Positions 23,778-57,468 of a stretch of 64,000 nucleotides of DNA are shown piece after piece. The notes under the pieces are model-generated. The model did not search any database. It had not been told where the DNA came from and worked only from the letters and a program-made list of their open reading frames with translations. Positions within the stretch are counted from its first letter, which is position 1. Every line of letters starts with the position of its first letter. The stretch is from the NCBI GenBank assembly GCA_005776725.1, contig SXOO01000280.1, forward strand, positions 7,425 through 71,424, given 5' to 3'. The DNA comes from Pseudomonadota bacterium. GTDB lineage: Bacteria; Myxococcota_A; UBA9042; GCA-2863065. Both the position numbers and the translations under genes were made by a program.

Positions 23778-23855
23778 GGGCGGTCTAGTTGCACCCTGAG
23801 CGGTCCGACGTCAACGCGACGCGGGCGGCCGGCGCGTCGAAATCGCTGACGCGCC

Positions 23856-25885: not shown

Positions 25886-25977
25886 GCAACGCGTCGGCTC
25901 GCTCCCGAGGCCCGAACCATCGGGTGCATCACCGGTACCGTCCGAGCCACAGAGTCCCCTGAACCAAGAGGTGTCCC

Positions 25978-32994: not shown

Positions 32995-33285
32995 CTAAGG
33001 GGTGGAGGACGGGGTGCTCGAATCCGCCTTCGGAGCAGGAGCCGGTGTGGCCGTTGACGACGCGGAGGCCGCCGGCTCCGAGCTGGTGGACTCGCTCTTC
33101 TGGTTGCTCTTGCCCGAGTAGCCGTCTTTGTACCAACCGCCGCCCTTCAGCTGGAACGACGTGCGGGAGATCCGTTTTTGAGTCGCCGCAGCGCACTTCG
33201 GGCACTGTGGGGCCTCGGCGCCCACCTTCTGCATGAGCTCGAATTCGTTGCCGCAGGCCTCACAGCCGTATTCGTAGATAGGCAT
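32995..33285 (-). CDS. FmdB-family zinc-ribbon protein
   Basis: MPIYEYGCEACGNEFE...CPKCA followed by a Ser/Ala/Pro-rich tail. Confidence 0.75.
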   Translation of the reverse strand: MPIYEYGCEACGNEFELMQKVGAEAPQCPKCAAATQKRISRTSFQLKGGGWYKDGYSGKSNQKSESTSSEPAASASSTATPAPAPKADSSTPSSTP

Positions 33286-33626
33286 CTCTCTACTCCGATC
33301 CGTTCAAGTCGGGCTAGGGCCGCAGCACCGGGGGTCTCTGTGGCGAATCCAGCGCCCGCACACCCCCCGATTCCCCACTCGCTGGCCGCGAGTTCGTGGT
33401 GCCGAGGTGTTGGGCGCCGACGTTAGGCGGCTGTCTCGAGGTGTCAACCTCGTTGCCCTCGAAGGGCACACCGGAAGGCTCACCCGCCAAGACACCGGGA
33501 CACCGCGCGGCCGATTCGGTTGACCTTGGGGAGCTACACTGCGATCCTGCGGCACATCGCCCACCGTCGGCCCAGAGAGCGGCCCCGACTTCGGCGCGAC
33601 GAGACCTCGCGAGGAGCGCGTCCAGC

Positions 33627-34547
33627 GTGAAGCACATCCGGTCCTGCCTCGTCCTCTGGCTGATCCTCGGTCCGTTGGCGGCTGCCGCGGCGCCACCAGC
33701 GGAAGGCAACGTCAACCTCGTGAACTTCTCGCCGGCCGGCGGCCGGTACCGCCTGTTCGCGGTCGAGTCCGCGGACGTCGGCCCCGCCTGGCAACCCTAC
33801 GGACACGTCCTGTTCCACGGCGCGCGGGACGTCCTTCAGCTCAGCGCTGGCGACCACACCGAGACGGTGGTCAAGGAGCAATATCTCGCCGACGTGAACG
33901 TTGGCGTGGGGCTCTTCGGCTTCCTGTCGCTAGACCTCACCCTGCCGCTGGGCCTGGCGATGAGCTCCGGCGACGGCGCCACCTCGCTCGCCGGGGTCTC
34001 TGGCGCCGGCCTCGGGGATATGGTCGTCCGCATCAAGGGCACCCCGCTCGCCACCGGGACAGCGGGCTTCGGCGTCGGCTTGGAGCTCGCGGCCACCGTC
34101 CCCACCGGCGACGGCGACCGCTTCCGGGGAGACCCTGGCGCAGGCCTCATCGCGGCGGCGATCCTCGATCACGCGTGGTCGATCGCGCGCCTCTCGCTCA
34201 ACCTCGGCGTCCGGATTCGGTTCGAGGAGAGCTCCTACCTCAGCGCCACGTTCGGGAACGAGCTCACCTTCGGCCTCGGCGTCCTGGTCGAGCTCTTCGA
34301 CCGCCGCCTCGGCCTCGCCTTCGAGCTCCAGGGTCGCACGCCGCTCACCGCGGAGGCCTTCGACAACACCAACACCACAGCCGTCGAGATCATGCTCGGG
34401 CCGCGCTGGTGGATCATCGATTCACTGGCCTTCGAGCTCGGGCTCGGCGCCGGGTTGGTCCAGGGCCTCGGAGCGCCCACGTTCCGCTTCAACACGGGCT
34501 TCGTCTGGGCGCCAGCGGCCCTCGCAGCGCCGACGGGAACACCATGA
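33627..34547 (+). CDS. secreted beta-rich (putative outer-membrane barrel-like) protein, homologous to the penultimate domain of the two downstream giant proteins
   Basis: GTG with SD gaggag. Signal peptide, alternating Gly/hydrophobic pattern, C-terminal ...[11 protein letters not shown]. Colinear with giant1 (about 41091-41930) and giant2 (about 49186-49990), sharing [31 protein letters not shown] and GAGLVQG. Confidence 0.65.
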
Positions 34548-37500
34548 CGAGAGTCCTCTTCACCAGCCTCCTACTGGCCGCGCCCTTCGCGCGCGCCGCG
34601 GAAGATTGCGCGAACGGCATCGATGACGACGCCGCCGGCGGCGCGGACTGCGCGGATCCGGCCTGCGCGGCCGACCCGTTCTGCTCGCCCTGCAACGTCG
34701 ACCTCACGTTCGACACCGGCCAGGGTCCGGTCACCGTGCCCACGGCGGTCTTCACCTGGGCCCAGGCCACCGGCGACGGGCTCATCGCCTCGGGCGGGCT
34801 CGCGGGCCTCACCCCATCGGCGGTGTCCGACGTGTTCACGGTGCCGGTCGCGGTGCCAGCGGCGGGCGAAGCGCCCAGCCCGCGCGTGGAGGTGGTGTTC
34901 TCGCTGAAGAGCAAGGCGTCCGCCGAGGACACGCACCAGGACACCTTCACGGTCTGCGTCGGCGTGCCGTGTACGAAGGACACCCCCAACCCGCTCTACC
35001 GCACGAGCCGCGACACCACTCCAGGCCTGGCCCCTTTCGGCGTGCCCAGCCCGCCATCGTTCAATGACGGTGTTTTCGACCACGTCTTCCTCGACCTCAC
35101 GGCCCACGCTGGGTCCACCGTGACGCTCGCGTTCGCCATCGACGCGCCCGCAGGGGGCTCCGCCGGGCGAAAGGGTCTCCGCGTGTCACGCCTGATCGTC
35201 GGGTCGGACGTTGACGTAGACGGCGCCTTCGAGGGCGTCGCGGGCAGCTGCGACCGCTGCTGGGACGCCGACAAGGACACCTACGTCGACGCCGCGGGCC
35301 CGGCCACCGCGGCCGAGTGCACCGCCCCCGACCTGGACTGCGACGACACCAACGCCGCCGTGAACCCCGCCGCCGCAGAGCAGTGTGGCGTGGTGGGAGA
35401 CGACGACTGCGACGGCGTCGCCGACGCGCTCGACTCGGACTGCGGCGTGGAGGACTGCGCCAACGGGGCAGACGACAACGGCGACGGTCAGGTCGACTGT
35501 GCGGACGTCACCTGCGGGTCGGACGCCGCGTGCGCCCCATGCGGCACTGTCCTCAATCTCAACCGCGGCGGCGCGGCCTTCGTGGCCGCCGACGACAACC
35601 CCGACGCCAACGCCGCGACACGCCTCTTCACCCACGGGCCGAACCCCTCGCTCCCCACCGAGATCGGCTGGTGGACCGCCCGCACGGGCACGGTGAGCAC
35701 ACACTCGGGCGTGAAGCCGGTGCATGCCACGCTCACCCGCAGCTTCGATGTCTCGTCCGGCTCGCTCAGCCCCAGCCTGCGCGTGTCGTACCGCCTCCGC
35801 GGCGAGGCCGCGGCCGGCAAGGACGTGTTCGGCGTGTGCTTCAACACGCCCGCGACGGAGTGTCGGGCCGACGCCCCGGCGAGCGCCCTGGCCTTCTCGA
35901 CGCACGTCGACACCGCAGCCACCGGCACCACGAACATCGACGTGCCCCTGCCGGCGAACAGCGCGGGCAAGACGGTGTCGGTGACGCTGTTCTACGACAC
36001 GGTCGACGGCGCCAATAACGCGAACGCCGGCCTCTTCATCGACGCCGTGAACGTGGCCAGCGACGCCGACGCGGACGGCGCGTCCGAAGACTCGGTCACG
36101 CAAGGGTGCGACCGCTGCGTGGACCAGGACCTGGACACGTTCGGCCGTGAGGGGATCCCCGGCGTCTATGTGTCTGAGTGCGCGTCCAACAAGCGCGACT
36201 GCGCGGACACCATCGCCACGGCCTTCCCGGGAGCTACCGAGCTCTGCGACGGGACCATCGACCACGACTGCGACGGCAAGGCAGACGCGGACGACAGCGA
36301 CTGCACCACCTGCGGAGACGGCGTCGCCAGCGCCTCAGAAGAGTGCGACGACGGCGCCAAGATCTCGGGCGACGGCTGCAGCGCCAGCTGCGAGCTCGAG
36401 GCGAACGCGCTCGTCCTGAGCGAGCTCCACTTCACGAAGCTCTCCCCCACCGCCTTCGGGGAGCAGTTCGTCGAGCTCCAGAGCCGCACCCTCGCCAAGA
36501 TCCACCTCGGCGGGCTCGCCGCGGGCCTGCGTCGCAGCACCGGCCAGGAGCTCCGCTTCGCGGATTGCGCCGCCGCGAGCCTCGTCCTCGCCGGCAACGG
36601 GCGCGTTGTCGTGAGCCTCGGTACCGCGGGGACCTCCGACGGCCTCAACGCGGCGATCCGTTGCGACGAGGACTTTCAGCTCGACCCGACCGGCGACGTA
36701 GTCACCTTGCTATCTGGCGCAGACACGCTCGACACGGCCGACGCGCGCCCCTTCGCGTGCGAGCTGTCCGAGGCCGCCGCCGCGGGGCGCGGGCGGTCGC
36801 TGGAGCGCCTGAACCCGGCCAGCAACCCGAACGACGCGGCGTCTTGGTGCCTCGCGTCCACGGCGACGAGCTACGCCACCTCGGGCAAGCACCACGGCTC
36901 GCCCGGGTCCGCGGGCGCCTGTGCGGAGCGCGCCTGTGACGGCGTGGACGACGACTGCGACGGCGCCACGGACGAGCTCCTTCCCGATACCGACGCGGAT
37001 GGGACCTGTAACGACCGCGACTGCGCGCCGCTGGTACCTTCTTGCGCGCTGGACTGCGCCACGGACGTGGACGGGGACTCCACGCCCGACTGCCGCGACG
37101 GCTGCATCGACTCGGACGGCGATGGCTGGGGCGTGGCCGGAGGCCTCCCGAGCTCCACCTGCAAGACGCTCGCGGGCGTAGCGAAGAGCGACTGCGAAGA
37201 TGATCTGGCGTTCGCCAACCCCGCGGCGTCGGAGGGACCCAGCGCCGCCTCCTGCCTCGATGGCGTGGACGACGACTGCGACGGCACGCCCGACTGCACG
37301 GACCCGAGCTGCGCCGGCACCGCCGCGTGCTCCGGTGAGGCGTGCGGCCTGCCGCTCACCCTCACCTGCGGCCAGGTCCGAGTGATCGAGCCGGAGGGCA
37401 ACGACTTCCCCTGTGGGCCCGGTGCGGACGCGGTACTCCGCTTCGTCGCGCCGCGCACCGAGCTGGTTCGCCTCGACGTGAAGAGCGGCGGCAGCCAGCA

Positions 37501-40500
37501 GTACGCCGGCCGGATCTTCGACGTCGCGTGCTCGAATCAGGCCTGCGCGCCGGGGATCGCAGACGCCGAGTCGTCCTGCCAGGAGCCCGGAACCGCCACC
37601 TTCTCGGCCGTGGCCGCCAAGGCGTACACGATCGTCGTGGACCAGCTGGCCAGCTGCTCCGCGTCGGGCGCCGCGCCGGTCGAGATCAAGCTGACCTGCG
37701 CCGAGCACTGCACCGGCGGGGTCGACGACGACGGCGACCTCTTGGCCGACTGCGCCGACAGCGACTGCGTGAGCCAGGCGGTGTGCGCAGGACAGGACTT
37801 CGACGGCGACGGCATCGCCAATGGTCTCGAGCTCACGTGTGGCGCCAGCCCCACCTCGCCGTTCCAGTCGCCCTCCCCCGCCGACGTTCAGAACCCGGAC
37901 AACGACAGCCAGCTCTCGTGCGTGGACGCGGACGACGACAACGACGCCGCCTCTGACGTCGTGGAGGCCGCTCAGTGCGCCGCCGGTGCCTCCGTGGACG
38001 CCAGCGTGTACCCCGGCGCCCCGCGCCAGTGCGGCAACGCGGGCGTAGACGCGAACTGCAATGGCATCGTCGACTCCGCGGAGGCCGAGTGCGGCGCGGT
38101 CGAGTCGCAGTGCGCCGACGCCAAGGACAACGACAGCGACGGCGCCAAGGACTGCGCCGACCCCGACTGCATCCCCTCGCTCGCCTGCGCCGCCCTGGAC
38201 TTCGACGGTGACCTGATCGCGAACACCATCGAGCTCGCGTGTGGGACCAACCCGCTCGACAAGAACCTGAAGCCCACGGCCACCGGCGCCGCCGATGGGG
38301 ACGGCGACACGGTCCCGAGCTGCGCCGACGCGGACGACGATGGCGACGGCTGGGACGACGTGGTCGAGTTCTCGTGCGCGTCGAACCCCGTGAACGCGTC
38401 CTCGACGCCGGTCGACACGGACGGTGACACCCAGTGTGACGCCGTGGACCCGGACGACGACGCGGACGGCTTCGCGGACCTCATCGAGGTGCAGTGCGGC
38501 TCCAGCCCCACGCTGGCGACCGAGACGCCCATCGACGCGGTCCGTGACCTCGACCTCGACGGCGTTTGCAACGCTCGTGACGTGGACCTCGACGGCGACG
38601 ACTGGACCAACGGCGTCGAGGAGGCCTGCGGCACCGACGTCGCCGACGCCAACGACAACCCTGAGGCCGCCGGTCTCGACGGTGACGACGACGGGCTCTG
38701 CGACGCGCTCGATGGGGACGACGACGGTGACACCTGGTCCGATGAGAAGGAGGAGCTCTGCCAGAGCGATCCGCTCTCCCCGGACTCCGTGCCGGCCGAC
38801 GTCGACGGCGACAGCATCTGTGACGCCTACGACGTGGACGCAGACGACGATGGCTGGCCCGACACGCTCGAGGTGCTGTGCGGCACCAACCCGCTGCTGG
38901 CCGCGAAGAACCCCAGCGCCGAAGGCCAGGACGAAGATGCCGACAAGCTCTGCGACAGCCTCGACGCCGACGACGACGGCGACGGTTGGTCCGACGAGGC
39001 CGAGGCGGTTTGTGAGTCCGACCCGAGAGACCCCAACGCGCTGCCGGCGGACCTGGACGACGACCACGTGTGCGACCTCCGCGACGACGACGACGACGGG
39101 GACGAAGCGATGGATGCCAGCGAGCTGATCTGCGGCACGGATCCGGCGGATGCCACCTCGAAGCCGATCGACACCGACGGAGACGGCGTGTGCGATCCGG
39201 TGGACACCGACGCCGACGAGGACCTGGACGGCTGGAGCAACGGAGACGAGCTGGCGTGCGGAACCGACCCGAAGGTGCCGGCCGACAAGCCGCTGGACAC
39301 GGACGCGGACAAGGTCTGTGACGTGCTCGACGACGACGACGACAACGACGGCTGGAGCGACCTGTCGGAGCTGCTGTGCGGCACCTCCGCCACCAACGGG
39401 GCCGTGGAGCCCGTGGACACCGACGGGGACGCCACGTGCGACGCCATCGACACGGACGACGACGGCGACGGCGCCTCCGACGCAGATGAGGCGCTCTGCC
39501 TCACGGATCCGAAAGACCCCACGGTGCTCCCCTTCGAGCCCGATCTCGCGGACACGGACGGCGACCAGATCGCCGACTGCGTCGATCCCGACGACGACGA
39601 GGACGGCATCCCGGACGTGGTCGAGCTCGGCGATACGAAGCTCGCGGACACCGACACGGACGGCCTGGACGACGGGACGGAGGACGCCAACAAGAACGGC
39701 GTCGTGGACACGGGCGAGACCGACCCCACGAAGGGCGACACCGACGGAGACGGACTGATCGACGGTGAGGAGGTTGCGAGCTGCTACGGCGAGGCCTGCA
39801 CGAAGACCTCCCCGACGTCGCGCGACAGCGACTCGGACGGCCTGTCAGACGCGGAGGAAGACGCCGACAGCGACGGGAGCGTGGGCGAAGGCGAGACGGA
39901 TCCGACCGTGTTGGACACAGACGGCGACACCTCGAGCGACGGGGTCGAGGTCGGCTGCGCGACCGACCCGCTCGACGCGACCAGCTTCCCGGTGGACAAA
40001 GACCAGTCCGGCACCTGCGATGGCGCCGAGGCCGACAGCGACGGCGACGGGATCGCGGATGGCGTGGAGACGCGCTGCAAGACGCTCCCGGGCAGCGCTG
40101 CCAGCGTGCCGCCGCTCACCGAGCTAGACGACAAAGACGGCGACGGTGAGCTCGACTGCTACGACACCGACGACGACGACGACGGCGCGATCGACGCGGC
40201 CGAGGCCCAGTGCGGCACGTCCACGAAGGACGCGGGCGCGGTGCCGTCACCCGCGGATCTCGAGGACACCGATGACGATGGCCAGCTCGACTGCGCCGAC
40301 GACGATGACGACGCGGACGGACTCGACACGAACACAGAAAAGATCTGGGGGACCGACGCGCTCGATGGTGACACGGACGACGACGGGCTCTCTGATGGCG
40401 CAGAGGTCACCATCCACGGCACCGACCCGACAAAGCTCGACACCGATGGCGACGGCGTGGCCGACGGCGTGGAGCTCGGGGTCACCGAGCCCGTCTTCGG

Positions 40501-42760
40501 CACGGCGGACAGCTTCGAGCCCGATCTCGACCCGAGCACCGTGACGCACCCCACGCGCGTCGACACCGACGACGACGGCCTCGCCGACGGCTCCAACGCG
40601 CAGGGCGGGGAGGACATGAACCATAACGGGCGAGTGGACGCGAGCGAGTCGGATCCGAACGACCCGAACGACGGGCTCCGCGACCAGGACGGCGACGGGC
40701 TCATCGATCGCGACGAGCTCACCCTCTGGGACACGAAGGTGGACGATCCGGACTCGGACGACGACCAGCTCGACGACAAGCTCGAGGTCAGCGTGTACGA
40801 GACCAACCCGAACGACCCCGACTCCGACAAGGGGGGCATCGCCGATGGCGCCGAAGTCACGGCCGGTACGGATCCCACCAAGAAGGACGACGACTTCTCG
40901 GCCTCCAAGGTCGTAGGCGACAACGTGTTCGGCTGCGACGCAGGCGGCCCAGGCGCCCTCGGAGGCGCCGGCGGCGTCCTCGCGGCGCTCCTCGCCCTGC
41001 TCTTCGCCCTCGGGCGCCGGAGCTCGCGACCGCTCGTGGGGGGCCTGCTCTTGGCTGGGGCCCTTCTCCCCGGCGAGGCGGGCGCGCAGCGCGTCGGGAA
41101 CGTCAACGTCGAGCAGTACCAGCCCGCGGGCGGGCGCTTCCGCGTGTTCAGTGTGGAGCAGGCGCCTGTCGGGCCGGCTTGGCAGCCCTACGCGCACGTC
41201 CTGTTCCACGGCGAGCGGGAGAGCTTCCAGGTGGCCGACGCCGCCGGGATCCGCACCGAAGTCCTTGTCGACACGACCACCTTCATGGACCTGAACCTGG
41301 GCGTGGGCCTCGCCGGCATCCTGCAAGTAGACCTGGGCCTTCCGGTCGCGCTCGAGATGAGCACCGCTCCCGACGTGACCGCTGTGGAGCCGGTGGGACG
41401 CACAGACGGCGCGGGGCTCGGTGACCTGGTCCTGCGACTCAAGGGCACGGCCATCGACAGCACGGGAGGCGGATATGGGCTCGGCTTCACCCTCGGCGCG
41501 TCCTTCCCCACGGGCGATCCCGATCGCTTCCGCGGCGACGAGGGCGTGGTGGTCCTCCTCAATACGATCAATGAGTTCCGTTCCACCTGGGCGGTGCTCT
41601 CGCTCAACCTGGGCGGCCGGTTCCGCACGGCGCCAGTCGAGTTCCTCGGGCGCGACTACGGCAACGAGCTCTCATACGGTCTCGGCCTGGACGTGGCGGC
41701 CTGGATCGGCCACGTCAACCTGGGCCTCGAGCTCTTCGGGCGCACCCCGCTCACGGCGCCATTCGACGGTGTGGAGAACACCGGACTCGAGGCGCTGCTC
41801 GGCGTGAAGTGGTGGATCGTCTCGGGCCTGTCGCTCGAGATCGCAGGCTCCATGGGCCTTGTGCAAGGCGTGGGCACGCCCGACTTCCGGTTCGTCACGG
41901 GGCTCGCCTGGGCTCCTCGCGAGGCCGACACCGACGGTGACCTCATCGACGACGTGGACGACGCGTGCCCGCTCGAGGCCGAGGACAAGGACGGCTACGC
42001 CGACCTCGACGGCTGCCCAGAGGCGGACAACGACGGCGACGGCGTGGCCGACGCGAACGACAAGTGTCCCTACCAGCCGGAGGACAGGAACGGCAGCCTG
42101 GACGACGACGGCTGCCCGGACGGAGACGACGACGGAGACGGCAAGCTCAACATCGTGGACCGCTGCCCGAAAGGTGCCGAGGATCCGGACAACTTCCAAG
42201 ACGGCGACGGCTGCCCGGATCCAGACAACGACGGAGACGGGATAGACGACGTGAAGGACAAGTGCGCCTTGGTCGCCGGCGGGGCCACGGACACGAACCA
42301 CGATGGCTGTCCCGACGCGATCGAGCTCGAGATCGCCACTCAGACCCCCGAGGAGGCCGCTGATCCCTGTCAGTTCGAGATCGCCGAGCGGGTCCCCTTC
42401 GACCGGCTGTCCACGACGCTCGACTCCGAGGCCCGGGCGGTGGTTCGTTCAATGGGCGATCGCCTCCTCGCGCGCCTCACGGACAGCAAGTTGCCGCCGA
42501 TCGAAGAGGTGAGTGTCAACGGGCATACACGGGCCGAGGGCGCCGACGCGGAGACGCTCGCGCTCTCGCGGCGACGCGCCCAGTCGGTGCGGGACGCGCT
42601 GGTGGAGCGCGGCTCGGTTCCGAGGTCCATCACACCGGCGCGCGGCTACGGCGAGACCGAGCCGCTCTCTGAAGAAGCGTCGTCTCGGCGCGTGGAGATC
42701 AAGGTGAGGATCGGCGGCCGCTGTGCGGATGTCGGGGCGAAGACGGAGGGCGGCCGATGA
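34544..42760 (+). CDS. giant (2738 aa) acidic Ca-binding surface/OmpA-anchor fusion protein: SP, MopE-like motifs, lamin-tail domain, about 40 TSP3-like repeats, internal MYXO-CTERM-like + internal SP-like segment, barrel-like domain, TSP3 repeats, OmpA C-terminal domain
   Basis: ATGA overlap with 33627-34547. N-terminus [32 protein letters not shown] ([25 protein letters not shown]). TSP3-like repeats of the form DTDGDxxCDxxDxDDDGDGW plus CGTDP. OmpA motif [24 protein letters not shown]...SRRVEIKV. Confidence 0.8.
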
Positions 42761-45700
42761 AGTCCCACCACCTGCTACTCGCGCTCCTCGCGCTGGCCCC
42801 CCGCGCCTACGCGGCCGAAGACTGCGCCAACGGGATCGAGGACGACACCGGCGGCGCCGACTGCGCCGATCCCGCTTGCGCGGCTGACCCGTTCTGCACC
42901 GACCTCTGCGGCACGTCGCTCACCTTCGCCACCGGCCGGCACACGGCTGAGCTGCTCACGGGCTTCGTGCACGCCAGCGGCGGCCTCGAGGCCCAAGGCA
43001 CCGGCGCCCTCAAGGTGGACCTGGTGGTGCCGCTCGAGCGCCCCGAGGCCAGACTCGAGCTGGTCCTCCGCAAGGAGGGCGCCGATCCGCTCCACGTCTG
43101 CCTCGACCTCGCGTGCACGCAGCCCCTGCTCACGGTGAACGGCGCCTCGGGGTCCATCACCCACACAGCCGGCGGGTTCTACGACGGCACCTTCGATCAC
43201 GTCTTCGTGGACCTCACGAGCAAGCGCGGGTCCACGCTGGCGGTCTTTGTGGTGGTGCCAACGGTCGCCACGGGGAATCCGCTCACGCGGCTCGAGGCGC
43301 TGCGGCTCTCGTCCGACGTGGACCGCGACGGCTTCTTCGACGGCGCCGCGGCGAGCTGCGACCGCTGTTGGGACGTAGACAACGACGGCGCCGCGCGCGC
43401 CGATAGCCCTGGCCTCTGCGGCGTTGCGGACTGCGACGACACGACCAGCGCCCGAGCTCCGGGCCTGACCGAGCTCTGCAGCGGGGGGATCGACGAGGAC
43501 TGTGACCTCCTGGTCGACGGTCTAGACGTCGGGAGCTGCGGTATCGAAGACTGCGCCAACGGGGCGGACGACAACGGCGACGGCAGCATCGACTGCGCTG
43601 ACCAGACGTGCGCCAGCGACCCCGCCTGCAGCCCGTGCCTGCCGAAGCTCACGTTCGCAACGGGGACCAACGGCGCCGTCGCCAGCGACAACGATCCCGA
43701 CGGTAATACGCAGACCCAGGTCTTCCGCCAGGGCGCCAGCGCGGCTCACGCGGGGGCGATCGGCTTCTCGACCGCGCTCACGGGCACGGTCTCTAGCCAC
43801 GGCGGCGGCCGGATCACTGCGGCGATCGCGCGCACCTTCCCTGTGCCATCCGGCCTCCCGGCACCGACCCTGCGCCTGCGGTATGCGCTCGATGGGGACG
43901 CGCAGGCGGGCAAGGACGTCGTCCTCGTGTGCTTCGACGTCAAAGCCTCGAACTGCACCACGTCCGTCACCGGCGCCGCTACGTGGACCTCTGACGTGAA
44001 CACCGGAGTGGGGATCGTGACCGTGGAGGTGCCCCTCCCCACGTCGGCCATCGGCGCGGTGAACGTGGTCGTGGCCTACGACACGGTCGACGGCGGCGGA
44101 AACGGCAACCGCGGGCTCTTCGTCGATGAGCTCAGCGTCGGGAGCGACCTCGACGGCGATGGGCTCGGCGAGGACCCGGCCATCGTGGGATGTGACCTCT
44201 GCGTCGACGCCGACGACGACGGCTACGCGCCCGCCTCGGTCGCCGCGGTCTTCGCCAGCGGATGCACCTCGGTCGCCGCCGACTGCGACGACGACTCGGT
44301 CGTCGCTAATCCCGGCGCCACGGAGCTCTGCGATCTGGTCGGCGATCAGGACTGCGACGGGCTGGCAGACGCCGAGGAGCCGAGCTGCTCCTCTTGCGGC
44401 AACGGCGCCGTCACCGCTGGCGAGACCTGCGACGACGGCGGGATTGCCCCCGGCGACGGCTGCTCGGCCACCTGCCGCCTCGAGACCGGCGCCCTGGTGG
44501 TGACGGAGCTGCACCTCACGCGGTTCGACCCCACGGCCCTCGGCGAGCAGTGGCTCGAGCTCTACAACGCCACGTCGGCCCCCATCGACCTCGCGGCATC
44601 CGGGATCACCCTCGGGCTGGACGTCTCTGTGCCGCTGCGCGACTGCACCGTGCTCACCACCTCTGTCGTGGCGCCCGGCGGCCGGCACGTGGTGGCCCTG
44701 GGGCCGCAGAACACCCTCGACGGCCTCGACGCGGATCTCGCGTGCGGCTCCGGCACGCTGGGCGGCCTCGTCGCGGTCTCGGCCGAGAACGACTCGCTCG
44801 ACACCGTTGACCTCGCGGCCCTCGGCTGCGAGCTGGCGGGCGCCACGAAGCCCGGCGTTGGGCGCTCGCTCATCACCGCGGCCACGGTCCACACGGGCAA
44901 CGACGCGGCCTCGGCGTGGTGCCTGGCGTCCACCGCCAGCTCGTACGCGAACTCCGGCCGTCACCACGGCTCACCCGGGTCCGGCGGGGGATGCGGCGAG
45001 GTGGTCTGCGACGGCATCGACGACGACTGCGACGGAACGATAGACCAGGGCTTCCCTGACGCGGACACCGACGGGACCTGCGACGCGCGGGACTGCGCGC
45101 CCCTGGTGAAGAGCTGCACCAATGATTGTACGACCGACGTGGACCTCGACAGCACCCCGGACTGCCGGGACGGCTGCATCGACGGCGACGGCGACGGTTG
45201 GGGCACGCCCGGCGGCCTCTTGCCCGCGACGTGCAAGACCCAGGGCGGGACGCCGCGCACGGACTGCGACGACACGCTCACCATCGTGAGCCCAGAGGCC
45301 ACCGAGGGCGGCGCGTCCTGCACCAACGGCCTGGACGACGACTGCGACGGCAAGGCGGACTGCTCGGACAGCGCGTGCGGCCTCACCGCGGCGTGCGCGG
45401 GCGAGAGCTGCGCCGCGCCCACCCCTCTCGCGTGCGGCGCCACGGTGGTGGTGGAGCCCGAGTCCAACGACGCCACCTGCAGCCCGGGCGTGGACTCGGT
45501 CTTCGTCTTCAACAGCACCTTCGACGGGAACGTGATCCTCGAGGTCCAGAACCTCGGGCGCCTCCAGTACAACGCGTTCCTCCACAAGACGAGCTGCAAC
45601 GCGGCGTGCCCGGCCGGGATCGCGCCCATCGGGAGCACCTGCGCGGCGGCCGGGAGCGGCACGGTCCCCGTCACGCCGGGCACCCCACTGTTCATCACGC

Positions 45701-48700
45701 TCGACAACGTGTCGGCCTGCGCGGGTAGCGGCTCGGGCGCGGCGCGCCTCACGCTGCGGTGCTCGGAGGCCTGCTCCGGCGGCGTGGACGACGACGCGGA
45801 CGGCAAGACCGACTGCGCGGACGACGACTGCGTCGCCTCGGTCAGCTGCGCGAACGTGGACTTCGACGGCGACGGGCGGGCGAACGGCGTCGAGCTCATC
45901 TGCGGGCGGGATCCCGTGAACCCGGGCTCCGTACCGTCGGCCGACGACGTGGCAGAGGCCGACACCGACACGCTCCTCAACTGCGTGGACAACGACGACG
46001 ACAACGACGGCCACTCCGACAGCACCGAGGCCTCCCAGTGCCAGCTGAGCGCGGGCGCCAAGAACGACTCGGACGTCTATCCCGGCGCGCCGCTGCAGTG
46101 CGCCATCGCCGCGGTCGACGCCGACTGCGACGGCTTCTTCGACAGCGAGTCGGCCGAGTGCGGCTTCATCGAGCAGCAATGCGGCGACAACCTCGACAAC
46201 GACGGCGACCAGAAGGCGGACTGCCAGGACCTCGACTGCGTTCTCCTGCCCATCTGCGGCCTAGCCGACTTCGACTCGGACGGCGCCTCGAACCGCACCG
46301 AGCAGCAGTGCAACACGAAGCCGACTCAGGCCTCCTCCGTGCCGAGCGACGCCGCGGCGTCGGATCAGGACAACGACACCCTCGCTGCCTGCATCGACAC
46401 CGATGACGACGGGGACCAATCCGACGACACCGAAGAGCTGCTGTGCGGCTCGGATCCGGCCGACGCGACGTCGACGCCCCCGGACCTGGACAACGACGGG
46501 CAGTGCGACGCGTTCGACGACGATGACGACGCCGACGGCTTCCCGGATCTCGTTGAGGTGGACTGCGGCAGCGACCCGGAAGACGCTGGGAGCCGCCCGG
46601 ATCAGCCGGCCTACGATCTGGACGACGACGACATCTGCGACGCGCGCGACGCCGACCGAGACGGCGACGACTGGACGGACGCGGAGGAGAACACCTGCGG
46701 GACCAGCCTCGCCAATGCCTCCGAGAGCCCGAGCAGCGCGGGCCTCGACGTGGACGACGATCACCTCTGCGACGCGGTGGACGAGGACGACGACGGTGAT
46801 GACTGGTCAGACGCCGAAGAGCTGCTCTGCGAGACCAACCGGCAGGACGCGGCAGACTCCCCGGCCGACACCGATGACGACGGCATCTGCGACCTCATCG
46901 ACTCGGACCCCGACGGCGATCTCTGGCCGGACGTCCTCGAGACCCAGTGCGGCACGTCTGCGTTGATCCCCGCCGACAACCCGACGGCCCTCGGCGCCGA
47001 CGTGGATGGAGACATCCTCTGCGACAAGCTCGACTCGGACGACGACGGCGACGGGTGGAGCGACGTCCTCGAGGTCCAGTGCGGGACCTCGCCGGCGCTC
47101 AAGGCGTCGGCGCCCACGGACACGGACGGCGACAAGACCTGCGATCCGAGCGATGACGACGACGACGGCGACGTGTCGCTGGACGCCACCGAGGCGCTGT
47201 GCGGCACGGACCCTCTGTCGGCCGAGTCCACCCCTGTCGACACGGACAACGACGGCCTCTGCGACGCGCGCGACCCGGACGCGGACCCCGATGGCGACGG
47301 CTGGTCCAGCTACAAGGAAGAGGCGTGTGGCACCAAGCCCCACGATGACAGCTCCACCCCCACGGACGCGGATGCGGACGGCGTGTGTGACGCGCTCACC
47401 GTGGACGACGACGGCGATGGCTGGCCCGACGCGGTGGAGGTGAGCTGCGGCACGGCGCCCGAGCTCGCGTCGAGCACGCCGGTCGACACCGACAAGGACG
47501 GCCAGTGTAACGGGGTCGATACCGACGACGACGCGGACGCCGCCCCGGACACCGCCGAGCTCACCTGCGGGACCGATCCGCTGGACGCGAAGAACCACCC
47601 CACCACGCTGGACCTCGTCGACGCGGACGGCGACGACGCGCCCGGCTGCGTGGACGAAGACGACGACAACGACGGGCTCCCCGATGTGGCCGAGGCCCTC
47701 CAGGGCTCCAACCCGCTGGTCACCGACAGCGACGGCGACGGCCTCACGGATGGCGAAGAAGACAGCGACCTCGACGGGACGCGCGACCCGAACGAGACCT
47801 CGCCGGTGCTCCCAGACACCGACGGCGACGGGCTATCGGACCGGGTCGAGACCCTGAGCTGCTATCTCGGCGACGGCGCGGCCACCGCATGCCAGGAGTC
47901 GAGCCCCACGAAGCCGGACTCCGACGAAGACGGTGTCCCCGATGGCCTCGAGGACAAGAACGGCGACGGGAAGACCGACGACTCCGAGACGAACCCCCTG
48001 AAGCTCGACACCGACGCGGACGGCCACAGCGATGGGTACGAGCTCGGCTGCGCGACCGATCCGCTCGCAGCGGAGAGCGTCCCGGTCGACAAAGACGCCT
48101 CGGACGTGTGTGACGGCGCCGAGGTCGACAGCGACGCGGACGGGATCGCCGATGGCGTCGAGCTGCTCTGCGGGACGAAGCCGCTGGACAAGAAGTCGGT
48201 GCCAGAGCTCGGCACGCTGGTCGACACCGATGGTGACGGCGACCTCGACTGCAGCGACGAAGACGACGACGACGACGGCACCCCCGATGTCTTCGAGCTG
48301 GCGTGCGGCACGGGCCCGCTCGACGCCGCCGCCAAGCCCCCCGAGGGCGCCACCGCCGACACCGACGGCGACGGCACGCTCGACTGCGCCGACTCGGACG
48401 ACGACGGCGACGGCCTGTCGGACACGGGCGAGCAGACGCTGGGGACCGACGCGCTCGACGCCGACAGCGACGACGACGGCCTCCTCGACGGCTACGAAGC
48501 AGGCATCACCGGGACCTCGCCGAACGCGGCGGACAGCGACGGCGACGGCGTGCAAGACGGCACCGAGCTGGGCGTGACCGAGTCCGGGCCGTTCACCGGG
48601 CCGAGCTTCCAGGTGGACGCCGATCCCGCCACCACCACCGACCCGCGCTCCGACGACACGGACAACGACGGCCTTACCGATGGCCTCGAGGACGCGAACG

Positions 48701-50823
48701 CGAACGGCAAGGTCGACGCGGGTGAGTCCGATCCGAACGTGGCCGCAGACGGGAAGAAGGACACCGACGGCGACGGCCTGGCGGACGTCGTTGAAGAGTC
48801 GCTGTGCGAAGAGGGCGTTTGCCTCGATCCCACGAACCCCGACACCGATGGAGACGGCGTGAACGACAAGCTCGAGAAGGACGTCCACGGGACCTCGCCG
48901 TTCGCGGCCGACACCGACGGCGGCGGCGTGAACGACGGGTTCGAGCTCTCGAACGGCACCGATCCGAAGGACGCCGTCGACGACTTCAGCAAGGCCACCG
49001 TCACCGGAAACAACGTCTTCCGCTGCGATGGCGGCCCGGGCTCCCCCGGGGGCGCGGGCGTGTTCCTGCTGGTGCTCCTCGGGCTCCTGGTGAGCCGTCA
49101 CGCGCGGCGCGGCGCCCTGCTCGCTCTGGTGGGCCTGCTCGGGCTCGCCTCGAGCCTGCCTGGGACCGCGAACGCGCAGACCGCCGGCAATATGAACATC
49201 GAGAACTTCTACCCGGCGGGCGGTCGCTACCGTGTCTTCTCGGTGGAGCAGTCCGTGGTGACCCCGGCGTGGCAGCCGTTCGGCCACCTGCGCTTCCATG
49301 GGGAGCTCGACACGCTCCGCGTGCAGACCGGCAGTGCCGAGCAGGTCCTGGTGGAGATGCAGACGGTGGCTGACCTCGGCATCGGGCTCGGGCTCGGCGA
49401 CTGGGCGCAGCTCGAGGTGGCCCTGCCGTTCATCGCGTCGGTGTCGTCCGGCGATGACGTGAGCGCCATCGCGCCGATCGAGGGCGCCGGGCTCGGGGAC
49501 CTGGTCGTGCGAGTCCGCGGCACCTTCCTCCCGAACCGGGTGGGCGGCGTCGGTGTGGGCATGTCGGTTGGGGCGACGATCCCCACCGGCGACGGCACGC
49601 GCTTCCGCGGTGATCCGGGGGTCGGGGTCCTCGCCAACTTCCTGCTCGACCACCGGAGCGAGCGCGTGGACGTGGCCCTCAACGTGGGCGTTCGTATCCG
49701 CACCGAGGAGGCCGAGTTCCTGGGCCGGACCTTCGGCAACGAGCTCACGTACGGCGTGGGAGTGGACGTCAGCCTCCTGCGGCGGCGCATCGACATGGGC
49801 GTGGAGCTGTTCGGGCGCACCCCGCTCGAGGAGCCGTTCGGGGACGCGGACCACACCACGCTCGAGCTGCTGGGCGGCCCGAAGTGGTGGATGTGGCAGG
49901 GCCTTGGCCTCGAAGCGCACGTCGGCGCCGGGCTCGTCCAAGGCTACGGCGCACCGAGCTTCCGCTTCGGTCTCGGGCTCTCCTGGGCCCCCGCCCACGA
50001 GGACGCGGACGGCGACGGTGTGAGCGACGACACCGACGCCTGTCAGTTCACGGCCGAGGACAAAGACGGCTGGGCTGACGACGACGGCTGCCCAGATCTG
50101 GACGACGACAACGACAACTTCGCGGACAAGGACGACCGCTGCCCGCGCGAGCCCGAGGACCGCAACGGCATCGACGACGGCGACGGCTGCCCGGACGGCG
50201 ACGTCGACGGCGACCGTATCGCCGACGCGATCGACCTGTGCCCGTACGACCGCGAGGACGTGGATCTGTTCGAGGACCGCGATGGCTGCCCCGAGCTCGA
50301 CAACGACCATGACGGGATCCTCGACACCGCGGACGCCTGCACCGAACAGGCCGAGACCATCAACGGCTTCAAGGACCGAGACGGCTGCCCGGACGAAGCG
50401 CCTCCCATCGTGAAGCGGAACGTGGTGCAGTGCCGCCTCCAGCTCGCCCGGATCGGCTTCGATCAGGCGAAGGACGTGCTGCGGCCAGACTCCCAGGCCA
50501 AGCTGAACCGCGTGGCCGAGGCGATCGCGAGCTACGTGTCGAACGGCGACCCCCCGCTGCTGCACGTCTACGTGTCGGGCCACGCCTCGGAAGAGGGTAC
50601 GGACGTGAACAACTACGACCTCTCGCTGCGGCGCGCACTGCAGGTGTACGACTTCCTCCTCGACCGGGGGATCTCGGCGTCGCTCCTGGCGCGACGGGGC
50701 TTCGGCGAGGCGAAGCCGCTCCTCGACGAAGAGGGTGACCCCGCGCTCCGCGACAATCGCCGCGTCGAGTTCGACGTGGAGCTCGGCGGGCCCTGCGCCG
50801 GCGCGGCCGTCTCCACCGACTGA
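42757..50823 (+). CDS. giant (2688 aa) paralog with the same architecture
   Basis: ATGA overlap. Colinear with 34544-42760. OmpA motif [24 protein letters not shown]...NRRVEFDVE. Confidence 0.8.
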
Positions 50824-50858
50824 GCGAAGGGCTCCTCCGCGCCCGCGCAGTCCGCGCA

Positions 50859-50877
50859 CTTCGGGTCGGCCCCGAAG
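50859..50877 (+). terminator. 7-bp perfect hairpin (cttcggg-tcggc-cccgaag) 35 nt after the giant operon stop
   Basis: Direct reading. There is no U-tract, which may be usual in a high-GC genome. Confidence 0.3.
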
Positions 50878-51000
50878 AGGCGCACCGCTTGGTGGGCACC
50901 CGCGCGATCACCGCCCCGCTCCGAGGCAACCAAGCGGTCTCTATCCTGTGAGGCGGCCGGCCTGGGACTCGCCGCCCACCGTGCCTGAAAGGCACTCGTC

Positions 51001-51882
51001 ATGCGCGTGCTCACGATCGACTTCGAGTGCTGGCCCCAGATGGTGTACGGCGAGCTGACGGGCCAGGACCGGGCGGTCGGGCGCGACGGGCTGGAGCGGG
51101 CCACCGATACGCTCCTCGCGCTCACCGAGCGCCACGGCGTGCGAGCCACGGTGTTCGTGCTCGGGGTCACGGCGCGGGCGTTTCCGGACTTGGTCCGGAG
51201 AATCCACGCAGCAGGCCACGAGCTCGGCGCCCACGGTGAGACCCACGAGCGCCTGGACCGTCTCACGCCGGCGCGCCGCCAGGCGTCGATGCGCGCTGTG
51301 AAGGCGCGTCTCGAGGACCTCGTGGGCGCCCCGGTCCGCGGCTTCAGGGCGCCTTACTTCTCGATCGTGCGGAGCAACCTCGACGCGCTCGAGGAGCTGG
51401 CGGACGCCGGTTTCGCCTACGACAGCTCAATCGTACCCATCGTGCATCGACGCTACGGCGTTCCCGGCTGGCCTCGCGGTCCCGAGCGCGTCGCCGGCGG
51501 GAGGCTCGTGGAGCTTCCGCTGGCCACGGTCGCAGTGGGCGCAGGGAACCTCCCCGTCGCGGGCGGGGGGTACTGGCGCGCCTTGCCCGACTCGTGGGTG
51601 GTGCGGGGCCTCGAGGCTGCGAATGACCAGCCTGCCGTGGTCTATCTGCACCCGTATCAGCTGGACCCGCAGCCGCCCGAGGCGGTCCCGGGGCCGCTCG
51701 GTCCGCTGAACCGCCTCCGGGCCGGTGCGTTCCGCCTGGCTCAGCGACTCGGGCGGTCGGGGAACCCTGCCCTGCTCGACCGGGTCCTGCAGACCGGGCA
51801 GTGGACCACAGCCGGGGAGCTCGTGGACGCGTTCTTGACGGCCGCTCCCCCATCCGCCACACCCGGTGCGCAATGGAGATGA
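51001..51882 (+). CDS. polysaccharide deacetylase family protein (NodB-like, DUF3473-type as found in exosortase/EPS loci)
   Basis: MRVLTIDFECW...HGVRATVFVLG...GHELGAHGETHE...GFRAPYFSI. Confidence 0.75.
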   Translation: MRVLTIDFECWPQMVYGELTGQDRAVGRDGLERATDTLLALTERHGVRATVFVLGVTARAFPDLVRRIHAAGHELGAHGETHERLDRLTPARRQASMRAVKARLEDLVGAPVRGFRAPYFSIVRSNLDALEELADAGFAYDSSIVPIVHRRYGVPGWPRGPERVAGGRLVELPLATVAVGAGNLPVAGGGYWRALPDSWVVRGLEAANDQPAVVYLHPYQLDPQPPEAVPGPLGPLNRLRAGAFRLAQRLGRSGNPALLDRVLQTGQWTTAGELVDAFLTAAPPSATPGAQWR

Positions 51883-53645
51883 GTGGGAAGCGAGTGGTGC
51901 TGGGCTCCTGCGTGGGCGGCGGCCCGATGGAGCGGCTCGCGCGGCGGCTCGAGGAGCGCGGGATCGCGGCTCAGGTGGTGAGCCTCGACAGCCCGGAGTC
52001 GTGGCGCGCTCGAATGGGCACGCCGCGGGGGCGCCTCCTGGCGCGCGTCCGAGCCTTCGTGGGTACGCCCGTGGCCGCGGTACGGGCGGCGTTCGAGCGC
52101 GACGACCAGGTCCTGGTGCCCACCACCAACCCCTTCTTCCTGCCGGCCGTGCTGGTGGCGACCCGACCGCTCCACGGCCGTGCGGTGGTGCCGCTGATCT
52201 ACGATCTCTACCCGGACGCGCTCGAGGCTGGCGGCGTGGAGACCGGCCCCCTGGCCCGCGCGGCGGAGGCGCTGAACCGCTTCGTCTTCCGCAACGCAGA
52301 CGGCGTGGTGTTCATCGGCGAGAAGATGGCCGAGCACGCCCGGGCGCGTTACGGGGCACCGCGGCGCGACGCGGTCTTCGAGACGGGCGTCGACACGGCG
52401 GAGCTCAGGGCACCCAAGCGCGTCGAGTCGCCCCTCGAGACCTGGCTGGACGAGGCGCCGGACGCGCTCGTGCTCAGCTACGTGGGCAACCTCGGCCTCG
52501 TCCACGACGTGGACACGCTGGCCGGCGTTTTGAGCGGGATTGGGCGCTTCGGCGGACGGCTTCGCGTGGTCATCGCGGCCACCGGTCCGGGCCTCCCCGC
52601 GCTGGTCGCGGCCGCCGCGGACTCGCCCCACATCCGGCTCGAGCCTCCCCTCGACGACGCGGCGTGGGCGCGGCTGCTGGCGCGCTCGCACCTCAGCGTG
52701 GCCACGCTCAAGCCCGCCGCGTTTCGGACCTCGATCCCGTCGAAAGCCCTGTCTGCGATGGGCGCCGGGAGCGCGGTCCTGGCGCTCGCGCCGCTCGACT
52801 CCGATCTCGGGGCGTTGGTCGAGCGCCACGCGGCGGGCAAGGTCTTCGCCCCGGGTGACTCCGAGGCCGTGCTGGCGTGGCTGGCCGCGCTATCGAAGGA
52901 CGAGCTCGCCACGCTCCGAACGAACGCGCGACGCGCCGCGGAGGAGCACTACGACCTGGCCGTGCTCGCCGCGCGGTGGGAGCGCTTCCTCGGCGTCTGC
53001 GCGGAGCGGCGCGACGCCGACCCGGTCTACGACGCGCTCAAGCGGGCACTGGACGTGCTCGTCGCGGGCACGGCCACCCTCGCTCTGGCGCCGATCCTGG
53101 CGGCCACGGCCGCGGCGGTGGCCGTGAACCTCGGCCGGCCGGTGGTCTTCGAGCAAAGACGCCCGGGTCGAGGCGGTCGCGTGTTCCTCATTCGGAAGTT
53201 CCGCACGATGCGAGAGCCGCGCCCTCACGAGCTCGGCCCCGAGTTCGACGCCGCGCGGCTGACCCCTGTGGGCCGCGCGCTGCGAGCGGCCAGCCTCGAC
53301 GAGCTTCCCACGCTGCTGACCGTGCTCGCCGGGCACATGAGCCTCGTCGGTCCACGCCCGCTGTTGGAGCGGTACCTCCCCCGCTATACCCCGCGGCAGG
53401 CCAGGCGCCACGAGGTCCCACCCGGGGTCACCGGGTGGGCTCAGGCCAACGGCCGGAACGCCACCACCTGGGACGAGCGCTTCGAGCAAGACATCTTCTA
53501 CGTCGAGAACCGCTCCTTGTGGCTCGACCTCCGCGTGCTCGCCCGCACGGTACGCACGGTGCTCCGGCGCGACGGGATCAGCCAGTCCGGGCACGCCACC
53601 ATGCCCGAGTTCCTCGGGCCCGAGTCCCAGGGGGCAGCCGCATGA
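51873..53645 (+). CDS. bifunctional GT4-like glycosyltransferase fused to a C-terminal PglC-like (Bac_transf) phosphoglycosyltransferase domain
   Basis: ATG at 51873 overlaps the upstream stop. The C-terminal domain has KRALDVLVAG...RPVVFEQRRPGRGGRVFLIRKFRTM...SLDELPTLLTVLAGHMSLVGPRP...PGVTGWAQANGR. Confidence 0.7.
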   Translation: MEMSGKRVVLGSCVGGGPMERLARRLEERGIAAQVVSLDSPESWRARMGTPRGRLLARVRAFVGTPVAAVRAAFERDDQVLVPTTNPFFLPAVLVATRPLHGRAVVPLIYDLYPDALEAGGVETGPLARAAEALNRFVFRNADGVVFIGEKMAEHARARYGAPRRDAVFETGVDTAELRAPKRVESPLETWLDEAPDALVLSYVGNLGLVHDVDTLAGVLSGIGRFGGRLRVVIAATGPGLPALVAAAADSPHIRLEPPLDDAAWARLLARSHLSVATLKPAAFRTSIPSKALSAMGAGSAVLALAPLDSDLGALVERHAAGKVFAPGDSEAVLAWLAALSKDELATLRTNARRAAEEHYDLAVLAARWERFLGVCAERRDADPVYDALKRALDVLVAGTATLALAPILAATAAAVAVNLGRPVVFEQRRPGRGGRVFLIRKFRTMREPRPHELGPEFDAARLTPVGRALRAASLDELPTLLTVLAGHMSLVGPRPLLERYLPRYTPRQARRHEVPPGVTGWAQANGRNATTWDERFEQDIFYVENRSLWLDLRVLARTVRTVLRRDGISQSGHATMPEFLGPESQGAAA

Positions 53646-57219: not shown

Positions 57220-57468
57220 TCTCAGTCAGCGCACGGCGGCGCGGTGCGCGTCGCCGCGCCAGACGTGAGGGGCGAGCAGACGCTTGGCTCGACCTCGGCG
57301 GGTGCCTTGAGATAGACTCCCGCCGCCCGTTCCGCCGCCCCAAAAGCTGTGTGGACGGGCGAGATCACAGCCGGGTCCGCTCCAGCATGGTCGGTCGCCG
57401 GCGTGGTCGCTTCAGGCGACCACATGCCATGCGGTGCGTGCCCGCACCGTCGACTCAGGGAGCGGACG

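Follow-up and report, generated by a model that had tools for sequence, protein, structure and literature searches.

TraA and TraB are a model for bacterial kin recognition and outer-membrane fusion. In Myxococcus xanthus, TraA and TraB have a 1:1 ratio, and TraA is tied to peptidoglycan through the OmpA domain of its partner (PMC12045341). TraB has been described with the domain order barrel, TSP3, and OmpA (PMC12045341), and traA and traB overlap by 4 nt (PMC3325183). The sorting of MYXO-CTERM proteins was linked to a protease only in 2025. After export by Sec, the tag helix retains these proteins in the inner membrane and the Arg cluster stays on the cytoplasmic side; they are lipidated on Cys, cleaved by myxosortase, and transported to the surface via the type II system (PMC11980579). 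MXAN_5598 is an "atypical" internal-MYXO-CTERM protein with a large adhesin, a tag, a barrel, and an OmpA domain (mBio 2025, PMC11980579, Discussion). A gene-fusion origin and N-terminal processing were proposed for it, and such cases were called rare (PMC11980579). MXAN_5598 was also detected in outer-membrane vesicles (PMC4158809). Here, we analyzed a 64,000-nt stretch of contig SXOO01000280.1 (assembly GCA_005776725.1, forward strand, positions 7,425 to 71,424; called the window hereafter), which has about 70% G+C. It contains three adjacent genes, a short barrel gene (g1) and two giant paralogs (g2 and g3). We consider that they probably form a three-gene operon of an uncultured Myxococcota, encoding a TraAB-like surface-adhesin and cell-wall-anchor system in fused form.

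Internal tag and internal signal peptide of the giant proteins

A first-pass annotation of this DNA had noticed an internal signal ahead of the barrel-like domain of both giants. It overlooked a MYXO-CTERM tag directly before that signal. Both giants and each of the 19 fused loci found in other genomes carry the tripartite tag (Cys motif, transmembrane helix, and Arg-rich cluster). In the giants, the Cys motif lies in an NVF(G/R)C-D-G-rich stretch, and the Arg cluster reads RRSSR (g2) or RHARR (g3). TIGR03901 scored 19.5 bits on g3 (cut-off 20, E 0.001), with model positions 6–34 of 34 aligned, and 10.7 bits on g2. The tag is internal, with about 570 aa after it, instead of lying at the C-terminus as in MYXO-CTERM proteins. 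N-terminal signal peptides are also visible in g2 and g3, and the closest relatives are all metagenome-assembled genomes (MAGs) or isolates of Myxococcota. The features of the locus are as follows.

33286..33626, plus strand: leader/promoter region, 340 nt, between a divergent Zn-ribbon/PFK gene pair and g1
33627..34547, plus strand: g1, 306 codons, GTG start, TGA stop; signal peptide (about aa 1–21) and 12-stranded outer-membrane barrel (strands aa 57–294)
34544..34547, plus strand: ATGA overlap of g1 stop and g2 start codons, read from the sequence
34544..42760, plus strand: g2, 2738 codons, ATG start; adhesin, MYXO-CTERM, internal signal, barrel, TSP3, OmpA
34544..34600, plus strand: g2 N-terminal signal peptide, read from the sequence, predicted cleavage before A
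34601..40921, plus strand: g2 adhesin half (profile scans, homolog comparison)
40922..41029, plus strand: g2 internal MYXO-CTERM-like tag (NVFGC motif, hydrophobic helix, RRSSR)
41030..41086, plus strand: g2 internal signal-peptide h- and c-regions, ending A-G-A|Q (sequence, alignment)
41087..41923, plus strand: g2 12-stranded barrel, paralog of g1 (profile matches, alignment)
41924..42343, plus strand: g2 TSP3 linker repeats, DxDGCPDxDND (profile and pattern matches)
42398..42685, plus strand: g2 OmpA-like peptidoglycan-binding domain (PF00691 43.4 bits, cut-off 27.2)
42757..42760, plus strand: ATGA overlap of g2 stop and g3 start codons, GGAGGG Shine-Dalgarno sequence 8–13 nt upstream
42757..50823, plus strand: g3, 2688 codons, ATG start; fusion protein, colinear paralog of g2
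42814..49011, plus strand: g3 adhesin half, domain order as in g2, LTD-like segment at aa 571–765
49012..49110, plus strand: g3 internal MYXO-CTERM tag (NVFRC motif, helix, RHARR)
49111..49176, plus strand: g3 internal signal-peptide h- and c-regions, ending A-N-A|Q (sequence, alignment; second helix in the model)
49177..50001, plus strand: g3 12-stranded barrel (profile match, alignment, structure model)
50002..50406, plus strand: g3 TSP3 linker repeats (profile and pattern matches, structure model)
50458..50751, plus strand: g3 OmpA-like peptidoglycan-binding domain (PF00691 44.7 bits, cut-off 27.2; predicted local distance difference test score of the model about 90)

The three proteins were aligned. 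The N-terminal signal peptide of g1 (basic n-region, h-region, and Ala-rich c-region) corresponded to the Arg cluster, the second helix, and the A-x-A of the giants. The Arg cluster thus serves at the same time as an n-region, which makes the internal signal peptide complete. In 21 fused genes, the junction had a median first transmembrane helix of 18 aa, a loop of 6 aa with 5 Arg or Lys residues, and a second transmembrane helix of 18 aa, followed by A-x-A. Cleavage-site conservation was assessed by a simple A-x-A count with control windows: 71% of fused proteins and 67% of stand-alone homologs had A-x-A-Q at most 30 residues ahead of the barrel, against 0.8% of control windows. As the frequencies in fused and stand-alone forms are so close, the cleavage site is under equal constraint after fusion. 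Since the tag and the internal signal follow each other with no stop codon between them, each giant is an in-frame fusion of two normally separate proteins, one a TraA-like surface protein and the other a TraB-like anchor.

Two in-frame GTG codons were noticed in this region. The one in g3 (codon 2112, position 49090) would yield a textbook signal peptide, M-SRHARR-h-region-ANA|Q. The one in g2 (codon 2165, position 41036) has GGAG 14 nt upstream.

Proposed processing of the giant proteins

The sequence features and the analogy with TraA and TraB make it fairly likely that the giants are polyproteins, each chain being cut into a surface adhesin and a barrel–TSP3–OmpA anchor. The N-terminal signal peptide would direct the chain to export by Sec. 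The tag helix would stop transfer, leaving the Arg loop in the cytoplasm, and the second helix would re-start export, so that an inner-membrane hairpin is formed. Signal peptidase I would then cut after A-x-A and free the barrel–TSP3–OmpA half, whose predicted first residue is Q2182 in g2 and Q2141 in g3. This half would be inserted into the outer membrane by the β-barrel assembly machinery. The adhesin half would receive its lipid on Cys, be processed by myxosortase, and reach the cell surface, as has been shown for TraA. At the outer membrane, the halves would reassociate 1:1, with the adhesin sitting on the barrel and the OmpA domain tying the complex to the cell wall. Fusion would fix the 1:1 stoichiometry of adhesin and anchor. 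The fused chain would have to be cut, because the cytoplasmic Arg loop and the two inner-membrane helices would bar the barrel from the outer membrane. The best support for this scheme is indirect; it comes from the A-x-A-Q conservation, from this need for a cut, and from the presence in outer-membrane vesicles of MXAN_5598, the only fused protein published so far (PMC4158809). The hairpin shared by 21 fused genes and about 64 of the 150 closest family representatives, the split counterparts, and the lack of a conserved internal start codon also speak for it.

Several points weigh against this proposal. The cuts at both sites of the fused proteins are predictions. The tag of g2 is weak on TIGR03901, and that of g3 lies slightly below the cut-off. 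The halves have no TraA/PA14 domain, and the label "adhesin" is drawn from their composition and repeats. The two prevalence figures given below come from biased samples: one scan relied on TSP3 patterns, and the profile contained fused proteins. The GTG codons at g3 2112 and g2 2165 leave a small chance of internal initiation at this locus.

Barrel, linker, and OmpA domain

We compared the three products with profiles and with each other. NF033763 (TraB) was the best NCBIfam match of all three (E 1.5e-16, 3e-36, and 7.5e-42; 59.5, 124.4, and 143 bits for g1, g2, and g3, respectively), and all missed the curated cut-off of 700. On these scores, g1, g2, and g3 are homologous to the TraB family and are not TraB orthologs. 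For Phenol_MetA_deg (PF13557, cut-off 22 bits), g1 passed with 32.4 bits, g2 was just below with 20.9 bits, and g3 was not listed. A structure model of g3 residues 1990–2688 contained two junction helices, the barrel, an irregular TSP3 linker, and an alpha/beta OmpA fold. The shared barrel had a fold like 4rl8, and its best structural matches also included FapF and the 12-stranded autotransporter and intimin translocators. It is 12-stranded and differs from the 8-stranded N-terminal barrel of the E. coli OmpA type. Profiles and model together indicate that the shared domain is a 12-stranded outer-membrane barrel of the FapF/COG4313/Phenol_MetA_deg class, as in myxobacterial TraB.

The first-pass annotation had predicted an outer-membrane barrel and had proposed profile checks for OmpA and TSP3. 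Structure and profiles agreed with the barrel, TSP3-type repeats were found, and the OmpA domains of the giants exceeded the PF00691 cut-off (43.4 and 44.7 bits versus 27.2). It had also called the arrangement the usual barrel–linker–OmpA layout of OmpA-family proteins. The order of barrel, TSP3, and OmpA in the giants stood; the assignment has to be changed, as the barrel is 12-stranded and the nearest named family is TraB. The C-terminal modules of g2 and g3 have the complete TraB-type architecture of signal peptide, barrel, TSP3, and OmpA. The g1 protein has the signal peptide and the barrel, and Pfam and NCBIfam scans detected neither TSP3 repeats nor an OmpA domain in it. In this, g1 resembles a natural OmpA-less TraB. 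Speculatively, it probably supplies an un-anchored version of the complex or a partner barrel. In M. xanthus, an OmpA-less truncated TraB still allows adhesive foci to form and does not support membrane exchange (PMC12045341).

The claim that the 306-aa product is colinear with the internal domain of both giants was confirmed. It is 48.7% identical to g2 residues 2185–2458 (E 7e-79) and 49.8% identical to g3 residues 2134–2413 (E 4e-86), and g2 and g3 are colinear over their full length with 48.4% identity over 2741 columns. The three barrels are about 50% identical to each other and equally close or closer (55–56%) to copies in other MAGs, which marks them as old paralogs. The relatives P0129 and P0133 are single fused genes without a barrel-only partner; the three-gene arrangement is therefore specific to this locus. 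Barrel-only family members exist elsewhere (P0220, P0221, and P0268). A scan of the genome contigs with g1 alone found no relative, and barrel-only alignments contained no segment of sufficient conservation to scan for loci.

Of the motifs quoted earlier as conserved in all three copies, ELxGRTPL, GLVQGxGxPxFRF..WAP, and RGD are common to g1, g2, and g3, whereas PTGDGxRFRGDPG and GNELTxGxGV match exactly only in g1 and g3, with small deviations in g2. The PTG[DN]..F.G. context occurred in only 26 of 213 family barrels, and just 7 of those 26 had RGD. RGD was rejected as a functional motif, being confined to a close subfamily and not conserved in the barrel family. This agrees with the earlier suspicion that it may be coincidental.

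Adhesin halves

Both giants have 115–117 Cys each; the whole g2 protein contains 115 Cys and 457 Asp. The adhesin halves contain acidic double-disulfide repeats, MopE-type motifs, a myxobacterial Cys-rich repeat, and an LTD-like segment. In g2, about 1000 aa consist of TSP3/CglD-like calcium-binding repeats. The long TSP3 region of the halves most resembles that of the gliding-motility surface lipoprotein CglD. Pfam and NCBIfam scans of the halves gave no match to a TraA/PA14 domain or to TIGR04201 Cys repeats.

A check for LTD had been suggested in the first-pass annotation, and its outcome was mixed. LTD (PF00932) had no Pfam match in g2 or g3 at E ≤ 0.1, and a PDB sequence search gave only a match of the Cys-rich repeat to pappalysin-2. 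The evidence for LTD is transitive. P0133, which is colinear with g2 and g3 with 42–44% identity over about 2800 aa, has an LTD match of 32.5 bits (cut-off 34.3) at residues 1033–1152, and these residues align with g3 residues 571–765.

In the first N-terminal module of g2 (aa 174–220), a faint GEVED match was seen (E 0.07). A GEVED domain is also carried by the gene after the partial TraB-like gene P0003 (locus L086, 1756–3823). P0003 itself was considered as a close stand-alone homolog and was uninformative, as it begins at a contig edge.

Gene calls and operon structure

The gene calls of g1, g2, and g3 were identical in independent NCBI and ENA records (contigs of 86 and 146 kb). The G+C content at third codon positions (GC3) was 0.86–0.92 across the whole open reading frames (ORFs). 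A GAGGAG Shine-Dalgarno sequence lies 9–14 nt upstream of the g1 GTG start, and an Rfam search of the leader (33286..33626) gave no family.

The ATGA overlaps reported at 34544 and 42757 were both read as 4-nt overlaps of co-oriented genes. A scan of 33100–51100 found no sigma70-like promoter, although sigma70 scans are weak for high-GC Myxococcota. Terminator-like matches were not above the shuffle expectation (8 versus 4.7 ± 2.0 in shuffles), with none at the junctions. The fold of the 3' region of the locus was not unusual (hairpin z = 0.25). The three genes appear to be one transcription unit, as was proposed earlier. Promoters or terminators between the genes, named there as the finding that would speak against an operon, were not seen, and in a high-GC myxobacterium such scans are weak evidence.

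Distribution and split counterparts

A protein search with the g3 C-terminus returned 1584 homologs, mostly stand-alone Myxococcota "OmpA family proteins" of 550–700 aa. Several of the matches share the internal junction, for example an Archangium protein with a textbook GGGGCGC...RFRRRLRR tag. One genome per species of named Myxococcota was then scanned with the full TraB-like module and TSP3 patterns, a procedure biased to TSP3-bearing genes; it gave 80 TraB-like loci, 19 of which were fused. Fused loci were present in complete Corallococcus coralloides genomes and in Hyalangium, Vitiosangium, Kofleriaceae, Sandaracinaceae, Haliangiales, and Bradymonadia.

We also searched 1.84 billion cluster representatives with a barrel-profile hidden Markov model and obtained 11,454 family members, 3,041 of them at E ≤ 1e-30. 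Among the best 150 representatives, 55 had the full hairpin and 9 more had it with the Cys motif slightly farther upstream (about 64, or about 43%), a sample biased by the fused members that the profile includes. The upstream Cys-motif/helix/Arg tag was kept in 55–64 of the 65 hairpin-bearing relatives. Fused family proteins reach 5,954 aa. Despite the sampling bias, the fused architecture is clearly not rare among these sequences.

Split counterparts were also found. In locus L007, the adhesin ORF shares 43% identity with g3 residues 1550–2084 (E 3e-78) and ends with MYXO-CTERM and a stop codon. About 80 nt containing GGAGG follow this stop, and then a TraB-like gene begins with ATG; its barrel and that of g3 are 45% identical. 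Loci L004, L020, and L062 have a similar split arrangement. Given these split pairs and the traA/traB overlap, the fused, split, and overlapping forms are states of one adhesin-plus-anchor module. Fused and split forms interconvert within one subfamily. About 60 of the 67 stand-alone TraB-like genes are unpaired.

Other arrangements were observed. In L053 (11689–14694), L064 (11623–13806), and L066 (11347–13239), the TraB-like gene comes first and a MYXO-CTERM gene follows it directly, opposite to the order of traA and traB; in L066, a tandem pair of MYXO-CTERM genes follows. At the P0129 and P0133 loci (L087, 21290–24751; L088, 10095–13598), a gene 35–70 nt downstream encodes a protein of about 1,150 aa with TSP3 repeats and an N-terminal lipobox-like SSGC or LTAC, without a MYXO-CTERM tail. 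This protein, which the window lacks, is perhaps a third component that has been conserved. P0153, P0170, P0193, P0199, P0201, and P0232 are fused proteins whose chain ends right after the barrel and thus lacks TSP3 and OmpA. Contig ends may have truncated them, or they may represent a real form that has adhesin, tag, and signal with the barrel only, paralleling g1.

Alternative explanations

One alternative to a processed polyprotein is internal translation initiation. The TraB-like half would be made from a start codon in the tag region, and the ORF would consist of two overlapping cistrons. The g3 GTG codon 2112 would give a canonical signal peptide, and the g2 GTG codon 2165 has its GGAG; the g2 candidate would, however, be without a charged n-region. 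In the 21 fused genes, the candidate starts are scattered Val or Met codons whose position is not conserved. Only 2 of the 21 have a Shine-Dalgarno-like sequence, and 3 have no start codon at all in the zone. The upstream half lacks a stop codon, so a full-length chain would be made regardless. We consider internal initiation unlikely.

The barrel could also be more than an anchor and serve specifically to export or translocate its own adhesin, in the manner of autotransporters or FapF. Its structural matches to the amyloid secretion channel FapF and to the 12-stranded autotransporter and intimin translocators are consistent with this, as is the close genetic linkage between the barrel and its adhesin. 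On the other side, TraA and TraB arrive at the outer membrane independently (PMC12045341), and the type II secretion system is needed by MYXO-CTERM proteins (PMC11980579). Autotransport needs a passenger that is covalently continuous with its barrel, and the stop-transfer tag interrupts this continuity; many family members are also unpaired. A role as export pore is improbable on this evidence. A bolder version combines such a pore with a widespread bacterial polyprotein pathway, in which the hairpin is cut by two proteases and the halves are reunited. The barrel would be a dedicated docking or export pore for its own adhesin in a "cut-and-reassemble" relative of type V secretion, and the barrels of g1 and of the C-terminal parts of g2 and g3 would form a mixed complex. 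We regard it as a long shot.

The giants might instead be ordinary OmpA-family proteins with a very long N-terminal extension, the internal signal being incidental or vestigial and the chain uncut. The barrel–TSP3–OmpA order is real, and hundreds of stand-alone proteins of that layout are annotated as "OmpA family protein". The barrel, however, is 12-stranded and FapF/COG4313/TraB-like, and the upstream tag is kept in nearly all hairpin-bearing relatives (55–64 of 65). The A-x-A-Q conservation equals that of the stand-alone forms. If the chain stayed uncut, its Arg loop in the cytoplasm and its pair of inner-membrane helices would keep the barrel from being placed in the outer membrane. This explanation is slightly less probable than the two alternatives above.

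An artefact or pseudogene, in which a stop codon was lost through a sequencing error and two neighbouring genes were thereby joined, is hardly credible. The source is a metagenome assembly and split versions of the gene pair exist, but the fusion is in both giants, the sequences are identical in two independent records, the in-frame junction recurs in 19 named genomes (including complete cultured Corallococcus chromosomes) and in about 64 cluster representatives, and GC3 is 0.86–0.92 throughout the ORFs.

Neighbouring genes

About 5 kb upstream of the giants (25963–28727, plus strand), a gene for a 690-aa protein with three DsbA/thioredoxin domains is directly followed by one for a 225-aa CPBP/Rce1-like intramembrane protease (PF02517). 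CPBP is the enzyme class of myxosortases. The protease (28050–28727) was considered as the cognate myxosortase and rejected: it had only a weak MrtJ match (24.8 versus 75 bits) and could not be identified as MrtX or MrtC. The CPBP and DsbA genes were also rejected as conserved partners, since neither recurs near other TraB-like loci.

At the window edge, a partial ORF (1–2130, plus strand) has a clear MYXO-CTERM tail (DDAGCGTTRQAGGRWPVAALLAFALLALARRR*) and appears to be another sorted surface protein; it had no NCBIfam match. Directly downstream of g3 lies an exopolysaccharide cluster (50989–55978, plus strand). It encodes an XrtA-system-type polysaccharide deacetylase-like protein (198 bits, cut-off 276), a GT4 fused to an exopolysaccharide-priming glycosylphosphotransferase, and a 1033-aa Wzy_C/O-antigen-ligase-like membrane protein. 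Further envelope genes encode a choice-of-anchor D domain protein (57316–59361, plus strand; 41 bits, cut-off 45) and a TonB/TolA-like protein (63000–63971, plus strand). An SbcC-like exonuclease subunit gene (minus strand) adjoins a Dam-family adenine methyltransferase gene (20718–24725); both are unrelated to the giants.

Comparison with known systems

Polyproteins in which a stop-transfer helix and an internal signal peptide form a membrane hairpin, with the products separated by signal peptidase, are found in viruses and organelles. These are systems of the eukaryotic endoplasmic reticulum or of thylakoids. Our literature search for bacterial internal-signal polyproteins with a sorting tag found no precedent. 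For specialists, the locus is not a new principle; it offers a clear polyprotein-processing prediction. Signal peptidase I and myxosortase would together split a bacterial polyprotein at a hairpin in the inner membrane, with the 1:1 ratio of adhesin and anchor fixed, and this can be tested. The fused "OmpA family proteins" of 2,000–6,000 aa would have to be annotated as two mature proteins. The locus would also be a natural system for comparing the roles of anchored and un-anchored barrels.

The COG4313/PF13557 channels and FapF share the barrel class with the window proteins. They differ in being stand-alone, in serving hydrophobic compounds or amyloid subunits, and in having neither a TSP3/OmpA tail nor a partner adhesin. 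Their sequence identity to the window barrel is only 15–17%. Autotransporters (NalP and intimin) resemble the giants in combining an adhesin passenger and a 12-stranded barrel in one gene, and intimin has a periplasmic peptidoglycan-binding domain as well. Their passenger, however, is covalently linked while it threads the barrel, whereas the two halves of the giants are separated by the stop-transfer tag and the internal signal. The passenger–barrel continuity of type V secretion is absent from the giants, as the stop-transfer helix, Arg loop, and signal peptide intervene.

MXAN_5598 and the giants both have adhesin, internal tag, barrel, and OmpA domain in one ORF. The MXAN_5598 group belongs to another subfamily, with a barrel about 27–31% identical to that of g3 and a different adhesin part. 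Its orthologs are among the fused loci (L025 and L039), with ftsZ immediately downstream. This ftsA/ftsZ context also sets the group apart: ftsZ adjoins only L025 and L039 and is absent from the window. The paper on MXAN_5598 does not describe a retained internal signal peptide (PMC11980579). What is new here is that the fused form is common, that a complete internal signal peptide is kept, that fused and split forms interconvert within one subfamily, and that two old tandem copies occur together with an anchor-less barrel. The literature calls such proteins rare, whereas 19 of the 80 species loci and about 43% of the closest 150 representatives had the fused form in our biased samples. Adhesin-plus-anchor pairing is a general Myxococcota module, which may be split, in either gene order, or fused.

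TraA and TraB (MXAN_6895 and MXAN_6898) resemble the window genes in the succession of a Cys-rich MYXO-CTERM surface protein and a signal peptide, barrel, TSP3, and OmpA domain, in the 4-nt gene overlap, and in the match of NF033763 to all three window proteins. They differ in being two genes, whereas the halves in the window are one ORF without a stop codon, and the window proteins score 59–143 against the 700-bit TraB cut-off. The window adhesin is about 2100 aa long and, unlike TraA, has neither a PA14-like variable domain nor TraA-type repeats. The window has two tandem fused copies and a barrel-only gene, and a role in membrane exchange is not implied. Judged by these comparisons, the window genes belong to a different subfamily and context from MXAN_5598; TraA/TraB is the closest functional analog, and MXAN_5598 is the closest architecture.

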